From a virus: DNA of 64,000 nucleotides. This document shows, piece by piece, positions 2,332-53,953 of the stretch. A model generated the notes under the pieces. It worked only from the letters and a program-made list of their open reading frames with translations, was not told where the DNA came from and made no database searches. Position 1 is the first letter of the stretch. Each line of letters opens with the position of its first letter. Location of the stretch: IMG/VR virus record IMGVR_UViG_3300033149_005152, positions 1 to 64,000 of that record; one strand, given 5' to 3'. Made by a program: the position numbers and the translations under genes.

Positions 2332-2574
2332 TTAATCTGTTGGATGAAATGGTAATTTTTCATATACCGCAACAAAAATATCATCAGGACAAATAAAATA
2401 ACCATCGGGATCAACACGAACAATATATTGATTACGCTTAAAATCACGTATTTCTCCCTGCATATTAATTGTACAATCAAAAGGAACTTTCACAGCTTGT
2501 ATTACCGGATGTTTTCTTCTATATTCTGTCCAATTTATCATATCTAAATTTATTTCATTCATTTTATTCTCCAA
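2332..2574 (-). CDS. Conserved phage protein (YRKKP..AV...CxPDIF..YE type)
   Basis: EYRRKHPVIQAV ... YFICPDDIFVAVYE pattern. Confidence 0.55.
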   Translation of the reverse strand: MENKMNEINLDMINWTEYRRKHPVIQAVKVPFDCTINMQGEIRDFKRNQYIVRVDPDGYFICPDDIFVAVYEKLPFHPTD

Positions 2575-3208
2575 ATATTACAGGTAATTTTTTAACAAAT
2601 TCCTCTCTTAAAGGTACCATTATCTCTCTCATTTGAGGATGTGCCTTTTCAGAACACCTTAAATCAAAAATATGCTTCCATTCCCTTAAATTTGCAGTCA
2701 TAACTATTTCTGTTTTTAAACTATTAGGCAATACTGAACGTGCTTGTTGGGGAGACCAACCATTACTTATCATATTTTGATAAGCACATTCACAATTAAG
2801 CATATGACAAAACCACTGATACTCAGGACTATGATCTTCATCATAATGATTATAAAAAAAATGGTATTCGCCAGGCTCGGTTTTCATCCAAGGTGGTATA
2901 ATAAATGTTACACCACCACTATAATTGCAAAAACGTGTACTCTCCTGAGAGTAAGAAGCTAATCTATGTCTCACCAACTCATGAGTTACACCACGATCAC
3001 AAATAATCTTTACGGTTACATTACAATGTTCTATCACGCTCAAATGGCCTTTTTTAATTATCCCTTTTATAAATTTTTCTGCCGATTCTTCCGTTATTTT
3101 ATTTTCACTTTTATAACAAACTCTCCCCGCTCTTTCTATTCTCTCGAGCATTAATTTAAATTCTTCATCTGTTGTCCAAATCTCAAAAGAAGGTTTTATT
3201 AATCTCAT
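2564..3208 (-). CDS. thyX: FAD-dependent thymidylate synthase
   Basis: GHLSVIEH, RHRLASYSQESTR (RHRx7S), ARSVLP, NLREW, AHPQMR. Confidence 0.95.
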   Translation of the reverse strand: MRLIKPSFEIWTTDEEFKLMLERIERAGRVCYKSENKITEESAEKFIKGIIKKGHLSVIEHCNVTVKIICDRGVTHELVRHRLASYSQESTRFCNYSGGVTFIIPPWMKTEPGEYHFFYNHYDEDHSPEYQWFCHMLNCECAYQNMISNGWSPQQARSVLPNSLKTEIVMTANLREWKHIFDLRCSEKAHPQMREIMVPLREEFVKKLPVIFGE

Positions 3209-3219
3209 ATTTTTATCCC

Positions 3220-3660
3220 TTAAAATTCTATTTGTCTTAAAAGTTCACCATTATTATTCTTTTTTAGTTTTTCTATTATATCTACTTTTTCTTCTACAGG
3301 CGGTTCTGACCCTGCAACACCTTCATCATGTGTAACCCAACCAAAAAAATGATCAGGAGAAAGGATAGTACTAGGAACGGTAGCAGTAATAATAGGAAGT
3401 TCATTATTAGAAGCATCTATTGGTCTCGTATCAAAAGGAATAACATTTCTAGACGGAACTTCCTCTTTCTCTATAAGTGCTTTTTTACGTCTTTTTTTGG
3501 TTATAGTTCTTTCGATCTTATTTTTTGCAATATAACGCTTAAACATCCTTCGGTTTGCCTCTTTAATTCTTTCATTCCTTCTTCTCGTTTTCCACAACCG
3601 TAATTTATTTAATAAATTATTCGTAAATTTATTTATCCATTTTACGACCTGTACCATCAT
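3220..3660 (-). CDS. Hypothetical basic protein
   Basis: ORF, coupled to neighbours. Confidence 0.6.
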   Translation of the reverse strand: MMVQVVKWINKFTNNLLNKLRLWKTRRRNERIKEANRRMFKRYIAKNKIERTITKKRRKKALIEKEEVPSRNVIPFDTRPIDASNNELPIITATVPSTILSPDHFFGWVTHDEGVAGSEPPVEEKVDIIEKLKKNNNGELLRQIEF

Positions 3661-4581: not shown

Positions 4582-5475
4582 TTATACTCCAAATTTGTCT
4601 AAATCCACCCAATTCATATTTATTAAAGACCAAAAATCCCTGGCTAAGCCCTTTAATAAATATTTATAGGGTAACATTCCATAACCGTTATTCCCCCAAT
4701 GTTTGCCCCAAGAATTTCTAATCAAAAAAGCACCAGTTGTTGCCACTTGATTCCTCTCATTTAAAATTATATAATTGTCATCGTAACCAGCTATCATTAC
4801 AGCGTGACCCCATTGTGCCTTCTCGTCATTACAGGGATAGGGAATATCTCCCTCAAATCCTCCCTCATTAAACGAATCAAATCCATAAAAACCACATACA
4901 GCAGGAACACCATATGATAACCATATTTTTACTCTTTGCAAAACATCTTCCCTGTTAATATCAGGAAAATCATGTCTAAAATAACAAATTGATTCGTAAT
5001 TATCAGCTACAGCATATACAAAAGCAGGAGGTTCCTCATCAATATAATTTGCATGTTCATAATAATCCCAATATTTATTTGGAGGTGCGCCGCATAATGC
5101 AATAGCTCCCATCGTAGACCTTAAATAAGCTCCCGTATCACCCGTTACTTTCATTAAATTTCTTGTCGTTTTATATATAAATAATTTAGAAGTTTGCAAA
5201 CATTTTCCAAACATCCTATTTTGAAAATACTCAATCATACCACCTACAGCATGTGCAGTACAAGAACCAATACTTCCCTGGTTTTCTATTGGGGAACAAT
5301 ATTTTGTTAAATCTACCTTAGAAAGTAATTCGGCAGGTTTTTCCTCATTAATTTTATGACTAATTGTGATTGATCGTAATTTATCATTATATTCATGATA
5401 ATCTCTTAAATCAGGCAAATCTGGAATCCAGCCATTCAAAATCATTCTCTCAGTTTCAACATTAATTCTACTCAT
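4582..5475 (-). CDS. Papain-family (C1A) cysteine peptidase
   Basis: GWIPDLPDLRD N-terminus, NQGSIGSCTAHA (Q, C), GHAVMIAGYDD (H), IRNSWG (N). Confidence 0.93.
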   Translation of the reverse strand: MSRINVETERMILNGWIPDLPDLRDYHEYNDKLRSITISHKINEEKPAELLSKVDLTKYCSPIENQGSIGSCTAHAVGGMIEYFQNRMFGKCLQTSKLFIYKTTRNLMKVTGDTGAYLRSTMGAIALCGAPPNKYWDYYEHANYIDEEPPAFVYAVADNYESICYFRHDFPDINREDVLQRVKIWLSYGVPAVCGFYGFDSFNEGGFEGDIPYPCNDEKAQWGHAVMIAGYDDNYIILNERNQVATTGAFLIRNSWGKHWGNNGYGMLPYKYLLKGLARDFWSLINMNWVDLDKFGV

Positions 5476-5864: not shown

Positions 5865-6830
5865 CTATTTTTTCTTTTTCTTGTTTTTCTTTTTAATTTT
5901 AGAATTTTTACGTAAGCCTAATTTACCGCCCATCATGGCTCCTTCTCCTTCTTCATCTTTAAGAGCGTGGAAACCTTTTCCTCTACCTCTACCATCCCGT
6001 GGGCCTCTTGCATCCCTGGGTGGGCCAGTTTTGTTTCGTCTCGGCATAGTATTACCTCCATTCACATATATTCTTTTTTTTGCTATATCATAATATTCCT
6101 TCGATATTTCACTTCCTATATATTTTCTATTAAGCAAAATCGCCGCTTCAACAGTCGTTCCGCTTCCCATCATTGGATCATATACAACATCTCCTTTATT
6201 AGACCAACTAATGATATGATCTTTAGCTAACTGAATAGGAAAAACAGCAGGATGTTTATAAACAAATTTCTTCTCGTGTCCAACTTTACATAACCATATA
6301 TTATATCTTTGACCATAGGGAACTATAATTTTTTTAGAACTTTCTTTCATACTCCCGTCTTTTTGTCTTGTAACGTTTTTCCCCCATGAACCAATATGCC
6401 CCTCATAAACGTTTTTCCTGTCTTTAATGGGATTAAAAGTATTAGGTTTTCCTTTAGAAAATACAAACATATATTCAAATATTTGATGATACCTATTAGA
6501 AGAAGGTTTTGAAAAATTATTTTTCTGATATATCATTGTATCATGTAGATTAAAACCGATTTTCTTAAAATAAAGTGCTTGTTTAAAACTTGTTCCTGTT
6601 TCACTTCTATTTATTACAGCATCTCCAACAATCCAAACAACAACACCACCCTGCTTAGTAACTCTAAATAACTCTTTTGCTATTTTCTCAAAATCAAAAA
6701 AAGAATGACATCCCCCATAAGTTCTTAAATCATCATAAGGAGGAGAAGTAACTACCAAATCAACAAAATTATCAGACATTCTTGACATCGTTATCAAACA
6801 ATCTTCATTATAAATTTTGTTTATTTCCAC
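5865..6830 (-). CDS. N4/N6 DNA methyltransferase (beta class) in frame with a C-terminal small basic ORF
   Basis: TSPPY motif IV, HPAVFP, DPMMGSGTT motif I; internal GGAGGT SD and ATG at 6047. Confidence 0.9.
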   Translation of the reverse strand: MEINKIYNEDCLITMSRMSDNFVDLVVTSPPYDDLRTYGGCHSFFDFEKIAKELFRVTKQGGVVVWIVGDAVINRSETGTSFKQALYFKKIGFNLHDTMIYQKNNFSKPSSNRYHQIFEYMFVFSKGKPNTFNPIKDRKNVYEGHIGSWGKNVTRQKDGSMKESSKKIIVPYGQRYNIWLCKVGHEKKFVYKHPAVFPIQLAKDHIISWSNKGDVVYDPMMGSGTTVEAAILLNRKYIGSEISKEYYDIAKKRIYVNGGNTMPRRNKTGPPRDARGPRDGRGRGKGFHALKDEEGEGAMMGGKLGLRKNSKIKKKNKKKKK

Positions 6831-7677: not shown

Positions 7678-8010
7678 CTAATCAAATTCTATAGCTCTTA
7701 ATAATTTTTTTGACTTTTCCATTTTGGAAGAGTTAATACCCGCTGATCTATCATCTATTAAATAAGCAACCTCTGTATATTGTGTACTATCTATATCCGA
7801 AGCATAATTTAACCTAATGCTAAGCATATCCCCATCCCTTAGAACAATATTACGACCAAGCTCACACGCATGTCCTCCACTGGTTAAGATAACAGTATAT
7901 AATTCAGGAGCGACTTTCTCAAAAGTTAGGACTTTGTGCACATTACTCATTCTCTTTTCCTCAGATTCTATAAGTTCTCTTAACTCATCTTCAGTCATTA
8001 AATCCTCCAC
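7678..8010 (-). CDS. Hypothetical protein
   Basis: ORF. Confidence 0.6.
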   Translation of the reverse strand: MEDLMTEDELRELIESEEKRMSNVHKVLTFEKVAPELYTVILTSGGHACELGRNIVLRDGDMLSIRLNYASDIDSTQYTEVAYLIDDRSAGINSSKMEKSKKLLRAIEFD

Positions 8011-48400: not shown

Positions 48401-48604
48401 TTATTTAATTTTAAATTTTTCTTGTAATAACATATATTTTCTTTTTCCAAGTACAGCTAAATCATAAAATCCTAATTTATTAGCCAGATCAACAACACAA
48501 TCATAGTCATACATATTACATAAACCACTTTTCCTTATATATTCGTATTGTTTTATAACATTATGCTTGTATTCCTCGTTTTCTTCAACCATATCAGTTA
48601 CCAT
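48401..48604 (-). CDS. DUF5049-like protein
   Basis: IRKSGLCNMYD...LA..LGFYDL. Confidence 0.7.
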   Translation of the reverse strand: MVTDMVEENEEYKHNVIKQYEYIRKSGLCNMYDYDCVVDLANKLGFYDLAVLGKRKYMLLQEKFKIK

Positions 48605-49115
48605 CTTTTTTTTCTTTACCCTTATCAAAATCGAAATCTTCAAATGGATTTTTTTCTCCTTTAATTACATCCTCATTATATTTTCCAAACAATTCAAGAA
48701 ACTCATTTAAAAACTCGTCTACTTCCACATCTTGCGATTCATCTTTTAACTCCCCCATAATTTTTTCTATGTTGTGTACTCCATTTTTTAATTCTTTCAT
48801 AATTTCTGAATAACGACGTTTTATATCTAAAATAAATAAACGCTTAATAAATTTTACTTCTTCTACCATTTTATCACTATTCGTAACTATTGAAAGATGT
48901 ATTATACTATCTAAAAGAACTAATAGCAACATATCTCTATTAAAACAATAATTTATCATGAAAATACGAAAATAACGATTTTTATCTTCCCTATTTTCAA
49001 GTTCTTCTGTTCTTATAGTCAATTCTTTGTTTTTATTTATTAAAGCAGTTTCAACTTCATTAAATCTTTCATTTATTTGATCTATTACTTTTTGTAATTT
49101 ATCCTCATCTATCAT
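48594..49115 (-). CDS. Hypothetical coiled-coil protein
   Basis: ORF with GGAGG SD. Confidence 0.6.
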   Translation of the reverse strand: MIDEDKLQKVIDQINERFNEVETALINKNKELTIRTEELENREDKNRYFRIFMINYCFNRDMLLLVLLDSIIHLSIVTNSDKMVEEVKFIKRLFILDIKRRYSEIMKELKNGVHNIEKIMGELKDESQDVEVDEFLNEFLELFGKYNEDVIKGEKNPFEDFDFDKGKEKKDGN

Positions 49116-49263: not shown

Positions 49264-49524
49264 TCATCTTGTTTTGTTATCATTATTTTCTCCTTTATCT
49301 TTTTCTGATTTGATTCTTTCTATTTCTAATTCAACTTTTTCTATTCTCAAATCAAGAAAATCATTATCATTTCTTAATCCAACAATACTTAACTCGTTTG
49401 CCATAATAGTACCTCTCCAACGATTATAAAACATTATAATTCTAAAAGTAGCATATACATCAGCTATTATAACCAAAATAAGTATTATAACTACCCATTC
49501 CATTATTTTCTCCTTTTTATCCAC
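49264..49524 (-). CDS. Membrane protein
   Basis: N-terminal TM helix plus coiled coil. Confidence 0.55.
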   Translation of the reverse strand: MDKKEKIMEWVVIILILVIIADVYATFRIIMFYNRWRGTIMANELSIVGLRNDNDFLDLRIEKVELEIERIKSEKDKGENNDNKTR

Positions 49525-49667
49525 AATAAGGATTGTCTAAAAGATTAAATCCAGAAATATCAATTGATATTTCCTTCAAAACCTCCGCAACTTTTTCATC
49601 CCACCAATCGCACCATATCTGATCTTTATCTATAATAATCATCATTTGTTCTCTTTTTTTGGTCATT

Positions 49668-49853
49668 TTAACTCCTTAATTTAATGTTATCTACTAACTC
49701 GATATAATATTCCTCTTTTTTACGATGATCTAATTCATCCCCCATTTCTCTCAATATATCATCAATTCGATCATAACAACTACTACCTTCAAAACCAAAA
49801 CCCTCAATAGAAAAATCCCCGTTTTTATCAATAATTATTTCCCAACGTGCCAT
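49668..49853 (-). CDS. DUF2997-family protein
   Basis: I.IDKNG...IEG.GF.GSSC......LG......K.EYY. Confidence 0.8.
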   Translation of the reverse strand: MARWEIIIDKNGDFSIEGFGFEGSSCYDRIDDILREMGDELDHRKKEEYYIELVDNIKLRS

Positions 49854-50143
49854 TATTTCATTCCTCCTATCCTTTGCTTATATTCCATTAAAGCTTCATA
49901 TCTTTTTTTATCCCTAATTAATTCTTTATAGCTCCATATCCAAAACCTACAAATATCATGATCATATGTATTACAAATTTCATCAAACTTATATCCATTG
50001 TACCAGCTTAACTCATTTTCTGCATTCATTTTATAACATAAATCAATTAACTCAATTCTTCGCCTAAATACCCATTCATTTCTATACATCATATAAAAAG
50101 CGAAAAGAGTGGAAATACATATTAAAAATATAAATATAAACAT
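49853..50143 (-). CDS. Membrane-anchored hypothetical protein
   Basis: N-terminal TM helix. Confidence 0.6.
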   Translation of the reverse strand: MFIFIFLICISTLFAFYMMYRNEWVFRRRIELIDLCYKMNAENELSWYNGYKFDEICNTYDHDICRFWIWSYKELIRDKKRYEALMEYKQRIGGMK

Positions 50144-50154
50144 TTTGTCCCTCC

Positions 50155-50529
50155 TTATGCCATTACTTGTAATTTTATCCTACCATTTTCAATTACTTCT
50201 GCATCAGAAAGTGATAATCCTTTTCTAAGAAATTTTTCAGTTAATTCCTCTTTTGTGTAGTTTTGTAAAATTTCTCTCTGTAAATTTTCATTATAATAAG
50301 TATCATAAATCATCTCATAAGTTCCATCCGGCATTAATTTGAAACCAAATTCAAATTCATGATTAAAACGACTATTTCCTTTTACTTTAATATCTACTTC
50401 TTTTGTTTCAGCATAACCTTTAATGGTTAATCCTTCTCCTATTTCAAATTGTAATCCTAAATCTTCCATTACTTTTGAGAGAGTGCTCAAATTACTTATT
50501 CTTGTTTTTGTTAATGTATAATGACTCAT
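50155..50529 (-). CDS. Ycf35/DUF1257-family protein
   Basis: MSHY...KTRI.....L...L.DLG, I.GY, FGF...DGTYE.IYD, Q.Y, G...I.L. Confidence 0.85.
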   Translation of the reverse strand: MSHYTLTKTRISNLSTLSKVMEDLGLQFEIGEGLTIKGYAETKEVDIKVKGNSRFNHEFEFGFKLMPDGTYEMIYDTYYNENLQREILQNYTKEELTEKFLRKGLSLSDAEVIENGRIKLQVMA

Positions 50530-50714
50530 TTTTTATCTCCTTATTTAAAAGTATATCTTATTTTTACAAAAACGCTAGTAACTATCCAACAAAATAATAC
50601 TAAAAGAAAATTTATGTAAACATTATTATTAAAATAATCACTTATTATTCCATCTCCTACTATAATCCACATAATTGCTATTATCCAAGCTTTCCAGAAA
50701 GGCATTTTAATCTC

Positions 50715-51014
50715 CTATATACCTAAAGAATGAAGTATTCGTAAAACATCAAGTACTTGAGAATCTGGTTGACCTTCTTTATCACATCCACAATAAGCAC
50801 ACATTTTATTCTTTTTAGAATGAACAAAATTATAATCTTCACATTCACAATTCCAAAATAATCCAGTTGTAAAAAATGTAAAACCATGTGAATCTATATG
50901 TTCTTCTATTTTTAATTCCTTTTTTAATTTATTATATTCATCATCTTCCGATTTTAAACCATAACTACTAAATCTAGTAAACTTCTTTTTTAATTCTTCA
51001 TACTTCATTTCCAA
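50715..51014 (-). CDS. Zinc-binding hypothetical (W.CEC...H...CxxCG...PDS)
   Basis: Motif pattern. Confidence 0.6.
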   Translation of the reverse strand: MEMKYEELKKKFTRFSSYGLKSEDDEYNKLKKELKIEEHIDSHGFTFFTTGLFWNCECEDYNFVHSKKNKMCAYCGCDKEGQPDSQVLDVLRILHSLGI

Positions 51015-51019
51015 TCTCC

Positions 51020-51259
51020 TTATTCAGTTATATACCAACACCGTTGAATGACAAAACCACATTCACCATAAACTTCCTCATATCTTAATTTACCTTTACT
51101 CACCAAGGTAAATAATCTATCTCGTAAATAAGTTTCATAGGCCTGGCGATCCCCACGTAATTGAGCAAGTTGATGAGTATTACAACCTTGATTATTCTTC
51201 ACCAGTTGTAGCAATTCCTTTTGACGCTTTTTACTATTGTTATGACGAAAATACGGCAT
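51020..51259 (-). CDS. Winged-helix DNA-binding protein
   Basis: ELLQLVKNNQGCNTHQLA...L..LVSKGKL. Confidence 0.55.
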   Translation of the reverse strand: MPYFRHNNSKKRQKELLQLVKNNQGCNTHQLAQLRGDRQAYETYLRDRLFTLVSKGKLRYEEVYGECGFVIQRCWYITE

Positions 51260-51271
51260 TCTATCCTCCTT

Positions 51272-52225
51272 TTAATCAAATTCTATTTTCCTTTTAAATT
51301 GTCCTGTAATTTTAGAAATATCACTTACAGTCTCTGCCTTTTCTCTTATTCTTGACAATATTTCAGCTAATTCACTTCTTGTTCCCTCATTTTTTTTATA
51401 ATCATAAGAATCTACATTCTTCAAATGTCCCTTTAATTCTTCAAGTTGTTTCTCAACTGTCTCATCACCTACAAAATTCAAACTTTTAAAATACTCAATA
51501 AAATTTTCCATGGTACTAATGTTTTTGTTAGAAATTAATTCATTGTTATCTAATTTCTTTTTAAGCATATCACACAATTCAGTTGTTTGCAAACGCAATT
51601 CAGCGACTATATCATCAATAAATTCATCAATAAGGATTTTAGATTTTTCCCGATATATCTCTGCTAATTTTTCATTTTCTGCCTGCGCCTCTAACGCTTC
51701 ATTATCAGTTACAAATACTCCATCATTATTGGATATAGCAAATAGAATCCAGTCAAAAGAAAATTTAGTTCTTATCCTCTTTGCTATTGGATATAACGAT
51801 CTTATTTTATCCACAATACTTATTCCAGACTTTTTCTCCCATTCCATATATTCCTTTATCATTTCCTCCTGTATTTCTCTATACTCATCAATAAATTCTT
51901 CTACACATTGATAAAATTCAGATTTTAATTCTTCCAACTTAGAAAGTAAATCAGGCAAATTCTTCTTAGGGATAAAATAGTGTTTTCCTATAGGAAACTG
52001 GAAACCATGTTCAGATACACATAATCTTGTCCTCGTATCAATAGAATTAAATTTCCCTACTAGTCCTTTAGGAATAAGACGTTTTCTACCTAAAGAATAA
52101 AATTCAGGAGCTTCATCTAAACCTAAATCTTCTTTATCTAATCTTACCTTTCCTTCCCATTTGGAGATATTAACATCAATCAATACTCCTTCCGTAAATA
52201 ATTTCCCAAAATTTAATTTTTCCAT
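51272..52225 (-). CDS. DUF3150-like helical protein
   Basis: LIDVNISKW.G...L...DLG, SLG.KRLIP, YFIP, YP.....KFSF, LNF.GD. Confidence 0.65.
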   Translation of the reverse strand: MEKLNFGKLFTEGVLIDVNISKWEGKVRLDKEDLGLDEAPEFYSLGRKRLIPKGLVGKFNSIDTRTRLCVSEHGFQFPIGKHYFIPKKNLPDLLSKLEELKSEFYQCVEEFIDEYREIQEEMIKEYMEWEKKSGISIVDKIRSLYPIAKRIRTKFSFDWILFAISNNDGVFVTDNEALEAQAENEKLAEIYREKSKILIDEFIDDIVAELRLQTTELCDMLKKKLDNNELISNKNISTMENFIEYFKSLNFVGDETVEKQLEELKGHLKNVDSYDYKKNEGTRSELAEILSRIREKAETVSDISKITGQFKRKIEFD

Positions 52226-52306
52226 TATTTACTCCTAGTCGTTCATTTTTAATAATAAATAATTCCTCTATAAGCATCAAATTTTCTTTTTATAATTAAA
52301 TCCCCC

Positions 52307-53866
52307 TTAAAGTTCTATTTTTCTCCCTGATTTTTCTTTCTTTACTTCCTCAACAACATTAGCCGAAACTGCAATACCATCCAATCTTTTACGCATGTGA
52401 TCTAAATCATTTCTCATCGCAATAGATATTGGTTTTATATTCTCATAAGCATCTGCTATAAATTCAGTATTAACTTCCTTTCCCCTATCAAAAGCCTCGA
52501 ACATAGCTTGTATAATACCTTGCTCAATTTCGGCACCTACAAAGTTATTAGATAAACCAGCTAACAATTTTAAATCAAAATCCTTTGGATTTCTATTCCT
52601 TTTTCTAATATGAATAGAAATAATCTCCATTCGCCCCTTATATCCTGGCAAATCCGCCCAAAATATCTCATCGAATCTACCTTTTCGTAAAAAATGTGGT
52701 GGTAATCCTTTAATATCATTTGCAGTAGCCACCCATATAATAGGATCAGTAGATTCTTGCATAAAAGTTAAAAACATTCCTATGATCCGAGCAGTAGTTC
52801 CAGAATCGCTTCTACCCGATGATTCAACCCCCTGAAAGGCCTTATCAAACTCATCAGCGAATATAACAACAGGAGCTATAGCTTTAGCTAGTTCAAAAAA
52901 CCGTTTTGTTTTTCCTTCAGATTCTCCATAAATTCCCGTAACAATATCGGCCATAGTAAATTTTAATAAAGGCATACCAAATTCATTTGATATAGCCTTC
53001 CCTATAAGAGATTTTCCTGTACCAGCAATTCCTACAATAAGAATGCCTTTTGGGAAGGGCAAACCATAATCTCTTGCCTCTTTAGACAAAATACTCTTTC
53101 TTTTTTTACACCAATTTTTAATATTTACTAAATCTCCTACGTCCGACATTTTCTCGTCAGTAGCATAATAATCTACACCAGACTTCTTTAAAGACTTTAT
53201 TTTTTCCTCTTGAACCATTTGAATACCTTTTTCTTCAAACCCTTTTTTACCTTCTCTTGATATTATATACGAAAGAGTATTTTCCATTTCTTCAGTAGTC
53301 AAACCTATTCCCGCATAAGACATCTTTTCCTTAACTTCATCAGTTATTTTTATTTTTGCATCTTCACCTCCACCTTTTTCGGCAATAATTGTATTAGCAC
53401 TTTCTATTACGTATTCTACTCTTTCTTTTAAATCATCTCTTGAAGGAAGAGCATATTCAAGTAATACAATTTGTTTTTCTAATTCTTCTGGTATTTTTAC
53501 AACGGATGACACAATTATTATACTTCTTTTTGTTGCTTTCAAGATATAAGATACATCTTTAAATTCTCTAGTTAAAATATTGTCCTTTTCTAAATAAGGA
53601 TGAAAATCCAATAGGACAAATATAGCTTTTCCATCATTTAATTCTTTTTTTTCTAAAATTTCCTTAATTATTCCCTTAGGATTACCGATAGAACTTTTTT
53701 TCTCATCATCCCATCCATCAGTAATTTTCCAAATAAAGATTTCTCTTTGTAGTTCTTCTGCTATGGCTTTGATCTCAGCTATTACTTTACTTTCTTCCCA
53801 TGTTCGCACCCACAAAAAAGGAAAGGAAGCCTTTATATATCCCTTCAAATTATCATAAAATCCCAT
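52307..53866 (-). CDS. Ycf46-like AAA+ ATPase
   Basis: Degenerate N-domain (T.EE, LLDFHPYL), GIAGTGKS, ADEFDKAF, ATAN..LPP.FLRKGRFDEIF, GAEIEQ. Confidence 0.9.
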   Translation of the reverse strand: MGFYDNLKGYIKASFPFLWVRTWEESKVIAEIKAIAEELQREIFIWKITDGWDDEKKSSIGNPKGIIKEILEKKELNDGKAIFVLLDFHPYLEKDNILTREFKDVSYILKATKRSIIIVSSVVKIPEELEKQIVLLEYALPSRDDLKERVEYVIESANTIIAEKGGGEDAKIKITDEVKEKMSYAGIGLTTEEMENTLSYIISREGKKGFEEKGIQMVQEEKIKSLKKSGVDYYATDEKMSDVGDLVNIKNWCKKRKSILSKEARDYGLPFPKGILIVGIAGTGKSLIGKAISNEFGMPLLKFTMADIVTGIYGESEGKTKRFFELAKAIAPVVIFADEFDKAFQGVESSGRSDSGTTARIIGMFLTFMQESTDPIIWVATANDIKGLPPHFLRKGRFDEIFWADLPGYKGRMEIISIHIRKRNRNPKDFDLKLLAGLSNNFVGAEIEQGIIQAMFEAFDRGKEVNTEFIADAYENIKPISIAMRNDLDHMRKRLDGIAVSANVVEEVKKEKSGRKIEL

Positions 53867-53925
53867 TGATCAATTTCCTCCTTGTACTTCTCCATTATTT
53901 TCCATCATTCGCCTCCTCATTAAAT

Positions 53926-53953
53926 ATTATACTATCTCTAAAAATTTTGTCAA
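53926..53953 (-). promoter_or_regulatory. Consensus sigma70 promoter for the Ycf46 module
   Basis: TTGACA-16bp-TATAAT about 60 nt upstream of the ATPase start. Confidence 0.8.

Follow-up and report, generated by a model that had tools for sequence, protein, structure and literature searches.

The stretch of DNA analyzed here (the window) comprises the first 64,000 nucleotides of the IMG/VR virus record IMGVR_UViG_3300033149_005152 and contains, on its minus strand, a gene string encoding a Ycf46-type AAA+ ATPase together with a DUF3150, a DUF1257 (Ycf35-family) and a DUF2997 protein. The ATPase gene comes first (519 amino acids (aa); 52307..53866; PF00004, E 2.8e-26; phrog_8638, E 8e-118) and is followed by the gene for the DUF3150 protein (317 aa; 51272..52225; PF11348, 87.8 bits against a cut-off of 24.9). 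Further downstream lie the genes for the DUF1257 protein (124 aa, starting with MSHY; 50155..50529; PF06868, 37.0 bits against 22.2) and the DUF2997 protein (61 aa; 49668..49853), the latter a narrow pass against PF11211 (25.4 bits against 24.1). A sequence-only reading of this stretch had named these four families and a consensus promoter heading an operon; all four families exceeded their Pfam cut-offs, and the promoter and the open reading frames (ORFs) were found where that reading had placed them. The ATPase and the DUF3150 protein end in a similar short tail (SGRKIEL at 52310..52330 and KRKIEFD at 51275..51295, both on the minus strand; R312 of the latter is invariant in its family), while the DUF1257 and DUF2997 proteins are untailed.

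The predicted sigma-70-type promoter, TTGACA-16-TATAAT (53926..53953, minus strand), lies 60 nt upstream of the ATPase start codon. It is the single 12/12 match in the 64-kb window, where 0.14 would be expected by chance, and at least one perfect match arose in 12 of 100 shuffles. The first terminator-like hairpin on the minus strand after this promoter is located at 47233-47206. Downstream of the DUF3150 gene the string is tightly packed, with intergenic spacing of -8 to +12 nt, and a Shine-Dalgarno site precedes each packed gene, the GTG-start 86-aa ORF excepted. The operon lies upstream of the genes for an SF2 helicase, DnaB, primase and PolA; early expression is suggested solely by this position, that is, by the promoter, the region of small ORFs and the replication genes downstream. 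The full record of 98,585 bp is a complete genome with direct terminal repeats. The window has a G+C content of ~31% and a strongly negative GC skew along its entire length, its minus strand holds every annotated gene, and its gene starts bear strong Shine-Dalgarno sites. Megablast of the locus against cultured phages revealed no close cultured relative, and tblastn searches of cultured phages with the DUF3150 protein, two of its relatives and the terminase returned nothing or one weak match. The phage is a clean, AT-rich example of the module, and its host is probably a member of Bacillota.

The ATPase is composed of an N-domain (residues ~1-245), one AAA domain, a K/E-rich linker and the tail. 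Pfam recognized a single AAA domain at residues 275-404, a region containing Walker A (GIAGTGKS, 279-286), Walker B (..FADEFD, 333-340) and the arginine fingers (RKGRFDE, 394-400). These motifs, previously described as intact, proved to be invariant across the family, since G279, G282, G284, K285, S286, D338, E339, R394 and R397 did not vary in an 18-member alignment. A dozen residues of the N-domain, including E24, E25, W46, G51, D87 and R100, were also invariant in this alignment. Residues 1-245 matched the predicted-structure cluster “AAA domain-containing protein ycf46” with a template modeling (TM) score of 0.88, and in the structure search the N-domain matched no clusters other than Ycf46-type ones. 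The N-domain, which the sequence-only reading had called degenerate, is thus a conserved Ycf46-specific domain. Relatives at E<=1e-20 numbered 3121, were ~500-540 aa long and aligned end to end, the best with 39-40% identity. Cyanobacterial proteins, among them those of Microcystis, Leptolyngbya and Okeania, shared 34-38% identity over query residues 1-481 to 1-507, their alignments beginning at ATPase residues 1-5. The AAA domain was nearest to the D2 domains of p97/VAT/Cdc48 (E ~1e-49). Judged by its sequence, the protein is a Ycf46-family member with one classical-clade AAA domain of a predicted substrate-threading type. In a tree of the ATPases, phage and cellular forms were intermixed and the partner label was clustered but scattered; the window ATPase sat on a long branch with a weak join to a clade containing an Aneurinibacillus genome locus. 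A single-protein pattern scan of IMG/VR gave no match, and the IMG/VR loci surveyed below surfaced by profile-based search. The structure search also contained a mostly viral cluster of ~1000-aa Ycf46-like ATPases that has an intein with a LAGLIDADG endonuclease.

The three partner proteins were characterized by profile and structure searches. The DUF3150 match spans model positions 5-229 of 257, and profile search assigned 6492 representative clusters to the family; a word-based homologue search for DUF3150 found nothing, and its nearest ESM Atlas clusters were mostly viral. The AlphaFold2 model of the protein (predicted local distance difference test score, pLDDT, 88.6) combines a small sheet at the N-terminus with a long hairpin of helices and a four-helix bundle at the C-terminus. 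Fold searches with this model returned only generic helical bundles for residues ~180-317, with no informative solved relative. The DUF1257 match spans model positions 2-102 of 103, and the N-terminal M-S-H is near-invariant in the family, as is S2 in 55 sequences. Its AlphaFold2 model (pLDDT 89.2) is a compact alpha+beta domain whose best fold matches were KA1 domains and adaptin-appendage platform subdomains (Z 7.0-7.8). Known ligands of such domains are peptides, lipids or RNA. Foldseek of the DUF1257 model found nothing at E<=0.001, and PDB sequence searches with DUF3150 and DUF1257 gave no match. In DUF2997, the residues G12, G20, G23 and C26 form a G..G..G..C core that is near-invariant in 53 sequences and is present here. 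Among 14 model genomes, DUF1257 and DUF2997 were found solely in Synechococcus elongatus. On the Allochromatium tepidum plasmid pAt1 (L166:3610-6023), the DUF3150 gene directly follows that of a different, 321-aa AAA ATPase and adjoins a VWA-domain gene, near topoisomerase III. Because of this arrangement, AAA ATPases of at least two kinds may serve as partners of DUF3150.

The neighborhood survey revealed that the module recurs widely. The 84 viral loci comprised 80 of the 357 IMG/VR loci encoding a relative of the ATPase, three cultured-phage loci (two phages and one Streptococcus satellite) and the window, and their ORFs, like those of 80 genome loci, were searched with home-made hidden Markov model (HMM) profiles built iteratively from the proteins of the window. 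All surveyed loci were picked by the ATPase, and the DUF3150 neighborhood counts are thus ATPase-anchored. In 43 of the 84 viral loci, a gene for DUF1257 and/or DUF2997 accompanied the ATPase gene, in the same orientation and no more than ~5 kb away. The triad of AAA, DUF1257 and DUF2997 was found in 42/80 genome loci, in Verrucomicrobiota, Planctomycetota, Myxococcota, Chloroflexota, Cyanobacteriota (ATPase and DUF1257) and archaea, and cyanobacterial ycf46 is directly followed by the DUF1257 gene. DUF3150 lay beside the ATPase in 12/84 viral loci versus 0/80 genome loci and is, among the surveyed loci, an add-on seen only on mobile elements. The cultured phages RHph_I4 (Rhizobium), HJ05 (Aeromonas), RcTiptonus (Rhodobacter) and JP1 (Agrobacterium) carry the triad, with a 210-240-aa gene between the ATPase and DUF1257/DUF2997 in the listed order. 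In these four phages the triad heads the gene block after the tail/lysis genes, a block that leads into replication genes in RHph_I4 and HJ05. The GenBank annotation of RHph_I4 already labels the DUF genes. The ~210-aa gene after the ATPase in RHph_I4 and HJ05 was considered as a diverged DUF3150 and rejected (hhalign probability <1%). On a plasmid of Ca. Manganitrophus, the gene order is JAB, hypothetical, AAA, DUF1257, DUF2997, DUF3150, hypothetical and Fic. The genes were thus found together in other phages, a plasmid and cellular genomes.

Other genes accompany the triad at some of these loci. A ~200-aa NrdG-like radical S-adenosylmethionine (radical-SAM) protein (Fer4_12; GPG.R...GC...C.GC, GGEP) recurs beside it in 17 viral loci (among them L027:9800-10432, L011, L016-L023, L034, L038, L043, L051, L056 and L070) and 10 genome loci (L103, L120, L122, L123, L126, L135, L138, L139, L148 and L164), in at least seven gene orders. 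The order is AAA, Hsp70-like, DUF1257, DUF2997, radical SAM and WD40 protein in a Chloroflexota locus (L120:7001-13596), and radical SAM, AAA, DUF1257, DUF2997, S26-peptidase-like, TPR and PilT/T2SSE-like ATPase in a Planctomycetota locus (L124:5809-12179); at L085, an ECF sigma factor lies upstream of the larger, Planctomycetota-type version of the triad. A KSB1 metagenome-assembled genome (L114:4335-10606) has one DUF1257-DUF2997 pair amid three tandem Ycf46-like ATPase paralogues, and at L007 and L008 a single ATPase is flanked by two such pairs. Mycobacterium phage Corndog (cluster O; gp96-gp90; L168) encodes a Ycf46-like ATPase that aligns to query residues 126-503 with 30% identity. The cluster O ATPase is followed by a 266-aa gene, several small genes and a ParB-like gene; the profiles did not find DUF1257 or DUF2997 at the Corndog locus.

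The shared C-terminal tail, which the sequence-only reading did not mention, ties the module to three distant genes of the phage. The predicted proteome of the whole genome (145 minus-strand genes, 31,346 residues) contains six copies of R.IE[FL], and five of these stand at the extreme C-terminus of a protein. When the last 40 residues of the proteins were shuffled, the mean number of such tails was 0.02 and the maximum was 2 in 2000 trials. The five tailed proteins are the ATPase (SGRKIEL), the DUF3150 protein (FKRKIEFD), a 146-aa protein (3220..3660, minus strand; ending GELLRQIEF), a 110-aa protein (7678..8010, minus strand; ending KKLLRAIEFD) and a 109-aa protein (genome positions 93177-93506, minus strand; ending ILRQIEF); the 146-aa and 110-aa proteins are candidate partners or clients. 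The three small proteins are mutually unrelated and without a PHROG match, and a K/E-rich stretch precedes each tail. In the 146-aa protein, the N-terminal 60 residues are extremely basic, with runs of R/K, and the K/E-rich linker follows.

Tails of this kind were also found beyond the window. In nine loci, the likeness between ATPase and DUF3150 tails averaged 13.3 within a locus and 10.2 between loci (permutation p 0.02), within-locus pairs being, for example, SRAATLDL with SRASVLEL and GRRIDA with GRVIDIE. Tail-like endings among the same-strand neighbors of the ATPase were enriched six-fold (25 observed versus 4.0 +/- 1.9), and the viral loci L010, L034, L045 and L046 carry them on more unrelated proteins. 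The tail was present on 0/31 DUF1257 and 0/14 DUF2997 proteins. Among genome ATPases, 27/42 with DUF1257/DUF2997 neighbors were tailed versus 3/37 without (Fisher p 1.6e-7), and the partnerless ATPases end right after a conserved RARxAS. Cyanobacterial Ycf46 ends in ..QRMEF, a related tail.

The remaining small ORFs of the string all lie on the minus strand. The 79-aa ORF (51020..51259) had been read as a winged helix-turn-helix (HTH) protein; support for this consists of one sub-threshold DeoR-HTH match (E 0.046), and we regard it as a possible HTH at most. For the 99-aa Cys-rich ORF (50715..51014), the cysteine pattern of the proposed zinc protein is present (CxC...CxxCxC, a possible zinc ribbon), and the only other match is to a PHROG of unknown function (phrog_18262, E 3.6e-6). 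A 54-aa hydrophobic ORF without a family match, probably a membrane peptide (50541..50705), and a 96-aa ORF with an N-terminal membrane helix (49853..50143; phrog_25285, E 4e-9, PHROG function unknown) flank the DUF1257 gene. The sequence-only reading had listed the HTH and zinc proteins as part of the operon; relatives of these and of the membrane ORFs occur in 0/83 other viral loci. Because they lack relatives there, the four intervening ORFs of 79, 99, 54 and 96 aa are, on this sequence comparison, lineage-specific passengers and not conserved parts. The packed string ends with two ORFs of 49 and 86 aa without a family match (49264..49666, minus strand), which overlap or abut (gaps of +1 and -8 nt). 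Shortly after the operon, an 80-aa ORF (48401-48643) matches DUF5049 (E 5e-9) and overlaps by 50 nt the end of a 173-aa ORF (48594-49115). The gene for the tailed 146-aa protein adjoins thymidylate synthase (2564-3208), and a peptidase-like gene (4582-5475) and a DNA methyltransferase gene (5865-6830) lie a few genes away.

Because the ATPase appears from its sequence to be a classical-clade AAA+ protein with intact motifs, the multi-component ATP-driven remodeling machine proposed by the sequence-only reading would be the natural interpretation. We tentatively favor, at close to an even chance, a specific form of it, in which the module acts as one multi-protein AAA+ machine, an ATP-driven unfoldase or segregase with a C-terminal docking tail common to its partners and clients. 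The ATPase would assemble into a ring and spend ATP on unfolding or separating target proteins. By analogy with the docking peptides discussed below, the tail may serve as a portable address that plugs the ATPase and the tailed proteins into one common docking site. DUF1257 and/or DUF2997 are the best candidates for this site, being constant members of the module that never bear a tail; in addition, DUF1257 resembles peptide-binding platform domains. DUF3150 and the three small tailed proteins would be adaptors or clients, DUF3150 being a fourth component specific to mobile elements. Transcription of the operon probably starts at the strong host-type promoter, ahead of the replication genes. 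A bolder form of the proposal, in which an R-x-hydrophobic-[D/E]-hydrophobic C-terminus is a portable address code across the Ycf46 world, DUF1257/DUF2997 are its socket, and DUF3150 and phage- or plasmid-specific clients plug in, seems to us possible, albeit doubtful.

Several observations weigh against the docking-tail machine. The ATPase lacks detectable partners nearby in about half of the viral and genome loci, a count in which the home-made HMMs and the flanks of 5-7 kb may overlook partners. The tail pattern fits 11/43 partner-bearing viral ATPases; it undercounts, because tails vary by lineage. The tail-partner association in genomes is suggestive but loses significance when relatedness is taken into account, with ~3 pairs in the same direction and 0.1 in the other (p ~0.25) in an underpowered comparison of ~8 usable pairs. 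The fold match of DUF1257 is middling (Z 7-7.8), in a range where a common arrangement is possible. The promoter match is no more than suggestive of promoter use, with a 12% chance of such a match in shuffled sequence. Finally, the docking site could instead be the N-domain of the ATPase or a host protein.

Other explanations account for parts of these data. The tail might be a substrate tag, the tailed proteins being unfolded or passed to a host protease on schedule and the tail of the ATPase itself acting as an autoinhibitory pseudo-substrate. This would fit the tails that terminate K/E-rich, probably flexible linkers, the type of segment where unfoldases begin; it would also fit an ATPase nearest to substrate-threading AAA+ proteins and a set of tailed proteins that varies from phage to phage, as expected of clients. 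However, DUF3150 is a conserved, well-folded operon partner and not an obvious disposable client, Pfam and PADLOC scans matched no protease in the module, and a degron carried by the ATPase itself would be unusual; we regard a substrate tag as unlikely. A role in replication or recombination was considered because of the replication-rich phage contexts and the reported interaction of Ycf46 with KaiC, a RecA-superfamily ring (PMC13683863). Here the ATPase would load, unload or recycle RecA/DnaB-superfamily rings, namely the DnaB-like and RecA-like proteins of phages and KaiC in cyanobacteria. The operon of our phage lies just upstream of the genes for the SF2 helicase, DnaB, primase and PolA. 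In ~22 viral loci the ATPase gene has SbcCD-like genes on one side and those for a DnaC/IstB-like loader, DnaB and primase on the other; in ~10 it is flanked by ParB and by a RecA/KaiC-like protein. A replication-O-like gene comes after it in RHph_I4 and HJ05, as does DnaB in RHph_I4. Early and replication genes cluster in phages regardless, however, which makes adjacency weak evidence, and the cellular triads have different contexts (sigma factor, radical SAM, S26-like, TPR and PilT-like, or Hsp70-like and WD40). None of the tailed proteins of the phage is a recognizable replication protein, and we consider such an accessory role improbable.

Host takeover or counter-defense, which the sequence-only reading had raised, would have the module eliminate or inactivate a protein of the host early in infection or when a plasmid enters. 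We give this only a small chance: the core triad is a stable chromosomal operon across phyla including cyanobacteria, which is less in keeping with a weapon than with a machine for housekeeping or stress, and among defense and anti-defense families PADLOC matched only the generic AAA domain. Its attraction lies in the presence of the module on many unrelated phages and plasmids, in the promoter-led region full of small orphan genes, in the JAB-domain and Fic genes that flank the module on the Manganitrophus plasmid, and in the restriction of DUF3150 to mobile elements noted above. A redox or iron-sulfur/radical step, with the DUF2997 cysteine and DUF1257 serving Fe-S enzymes and the ATPase as a chaperone, is suggested by the recurrent NrdG-like radical-SAM neighbor, by a second radical-SAM gene in the operon of the Planctomycetes-Verrucomicrobia-Chlamydiae (PVC) group, by a ferredoxin in the cyanobacterial DUF2997-ycf35-fed7 cluster (PMC4284462) and by the near-invariant C26. 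A radical-SAM partner was sought in the phage and discarded, as no Fer4_12/radical-SAM gene was found in its genome, so the module works without one; moreover, a single cysteine is insufficient to hold a cluster and the link is one of neighborhood alone. This step strikes us as very improbable. That there is no system, the genes being unrelated early genes adjacent by chance, could be argued from the four or five non-conserved small ORFs that interrupt the four family genes, but is hardly credible in view of a same-strand linkage that recurs dozens of times across unrelated loci of viruses, plasmids and cells, and of a shared tail far beyond chance.

Among known systems, the docking-tail machine is closest to the cyanobacterial and plastid Ycf46-Ycf35-DUF2997 set, with which it shares full-length homology including the N-domain, the two small partner families and a related tail. 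It differs in that the phage ATPase is just 34-40% identical and sits on a long branch, the module is placed next to replication genes with a host-type promoter, and DUF3150 and three extra tailed proteins are added. In cyanobacteria, ycf46 is reported to belong to a three-gene operon that is co-regulated in severe stress, and its product is reported to interact with KaiC and has been linked to CO2 use (PMC13683863). The AAA domain itself is nearest to Cdc48/p97/VAT and PAN/Rpt, as a classical-clade domain with two arginine fingers. Unlike type II Cdc48/p97, however, the phage ATPase has one AAA domain instead of two and an N-domain that is not a double-psi-barrel, and, although predicted to work in a similar way, is not a member of that group; unlike proteasomal ATPases, it ends in ..GRKIEL without a penultimate Tyr, which is neither HbYX nor DDLYG, and no 20S-type protease gene was noted in the phage, where no search was aimed at one. 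In the C-terminal tails of p97 and the HbYX tails of proteasomal ATPases, a short C-terminal peptide docks the ring to a partner, with dedicated cofactors; the phage tail, in contrast, is also found on non-ATPase proteins. In SspB-type adaptors, an extreme C-terminal peptide docks on the N-domain of ClpX. These resemble the phage proteins in the short basic-hydrophobic C-terminal peptide that follows a flexible linker on several unrelated proteins, whereas the ATPase family and the motif are different and here the ATPase itself is tailed. Because the ATPase carries the tail, its N-domain need not be the receptor.

Two further systems were compared with the module. PADLOC and the NCBIfam IetA/IteA models match the AAA domain of the phage, which recalls IetAS and SGI1 SgiAT (AAA and S8 protease); in contrast to these, the phage module has no matched protease partner and its N-domain differs. 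Membership in IetAS was rejected, as the IteA_antiphage score of 55 bits, far below the cut-off of 510, reflects the generic AAA domain only. A ubiquitin-like tagging cassette was likewise rejected: across the complete 98.6-kb genome, neither ThiF nor Prok-JAB was matched.

For decades, ycf46 and ycf35 have stood as named orphan genes in the genomes of plastids and cyanobacteria. Our literature search found plastid-genome catalogues, a ferredoxin review containing the DUF2997-ycf35-fed7 cluster (PMC4284462) and a transcriptome study of the ycf46 operon (PMC13683863), and no paper on the module as one machine, on the phage module or on the tail; this agrees with the earlier suggestion of an undescribed system. 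New in this study are the five tailed proteins in one genome, the tail-partner association in genomes, the untailed state of DUF1257 and DUF2997, and the fold lead for DUF1257. The same core travels on unrelated phages and a plasmid and, in many phyla of bacteria and archaea, forms part of conserved operons. The tail makes this opaque gene set testable, by asking which partners bind via a peptide of 5-7 residues, and lets candidate partners or clients be listed for each genome, here three small proteins encoded far from the operon. The phages RHph_I4, HJ05, RcTiptonus and JP1 are cultured carriers of the triad and thus potential genetic models. If the tail is indeed an address code, the clients of ycf46/ycf35, and those of hundreds of phages and plasmids, would be predictable from sequence alone.

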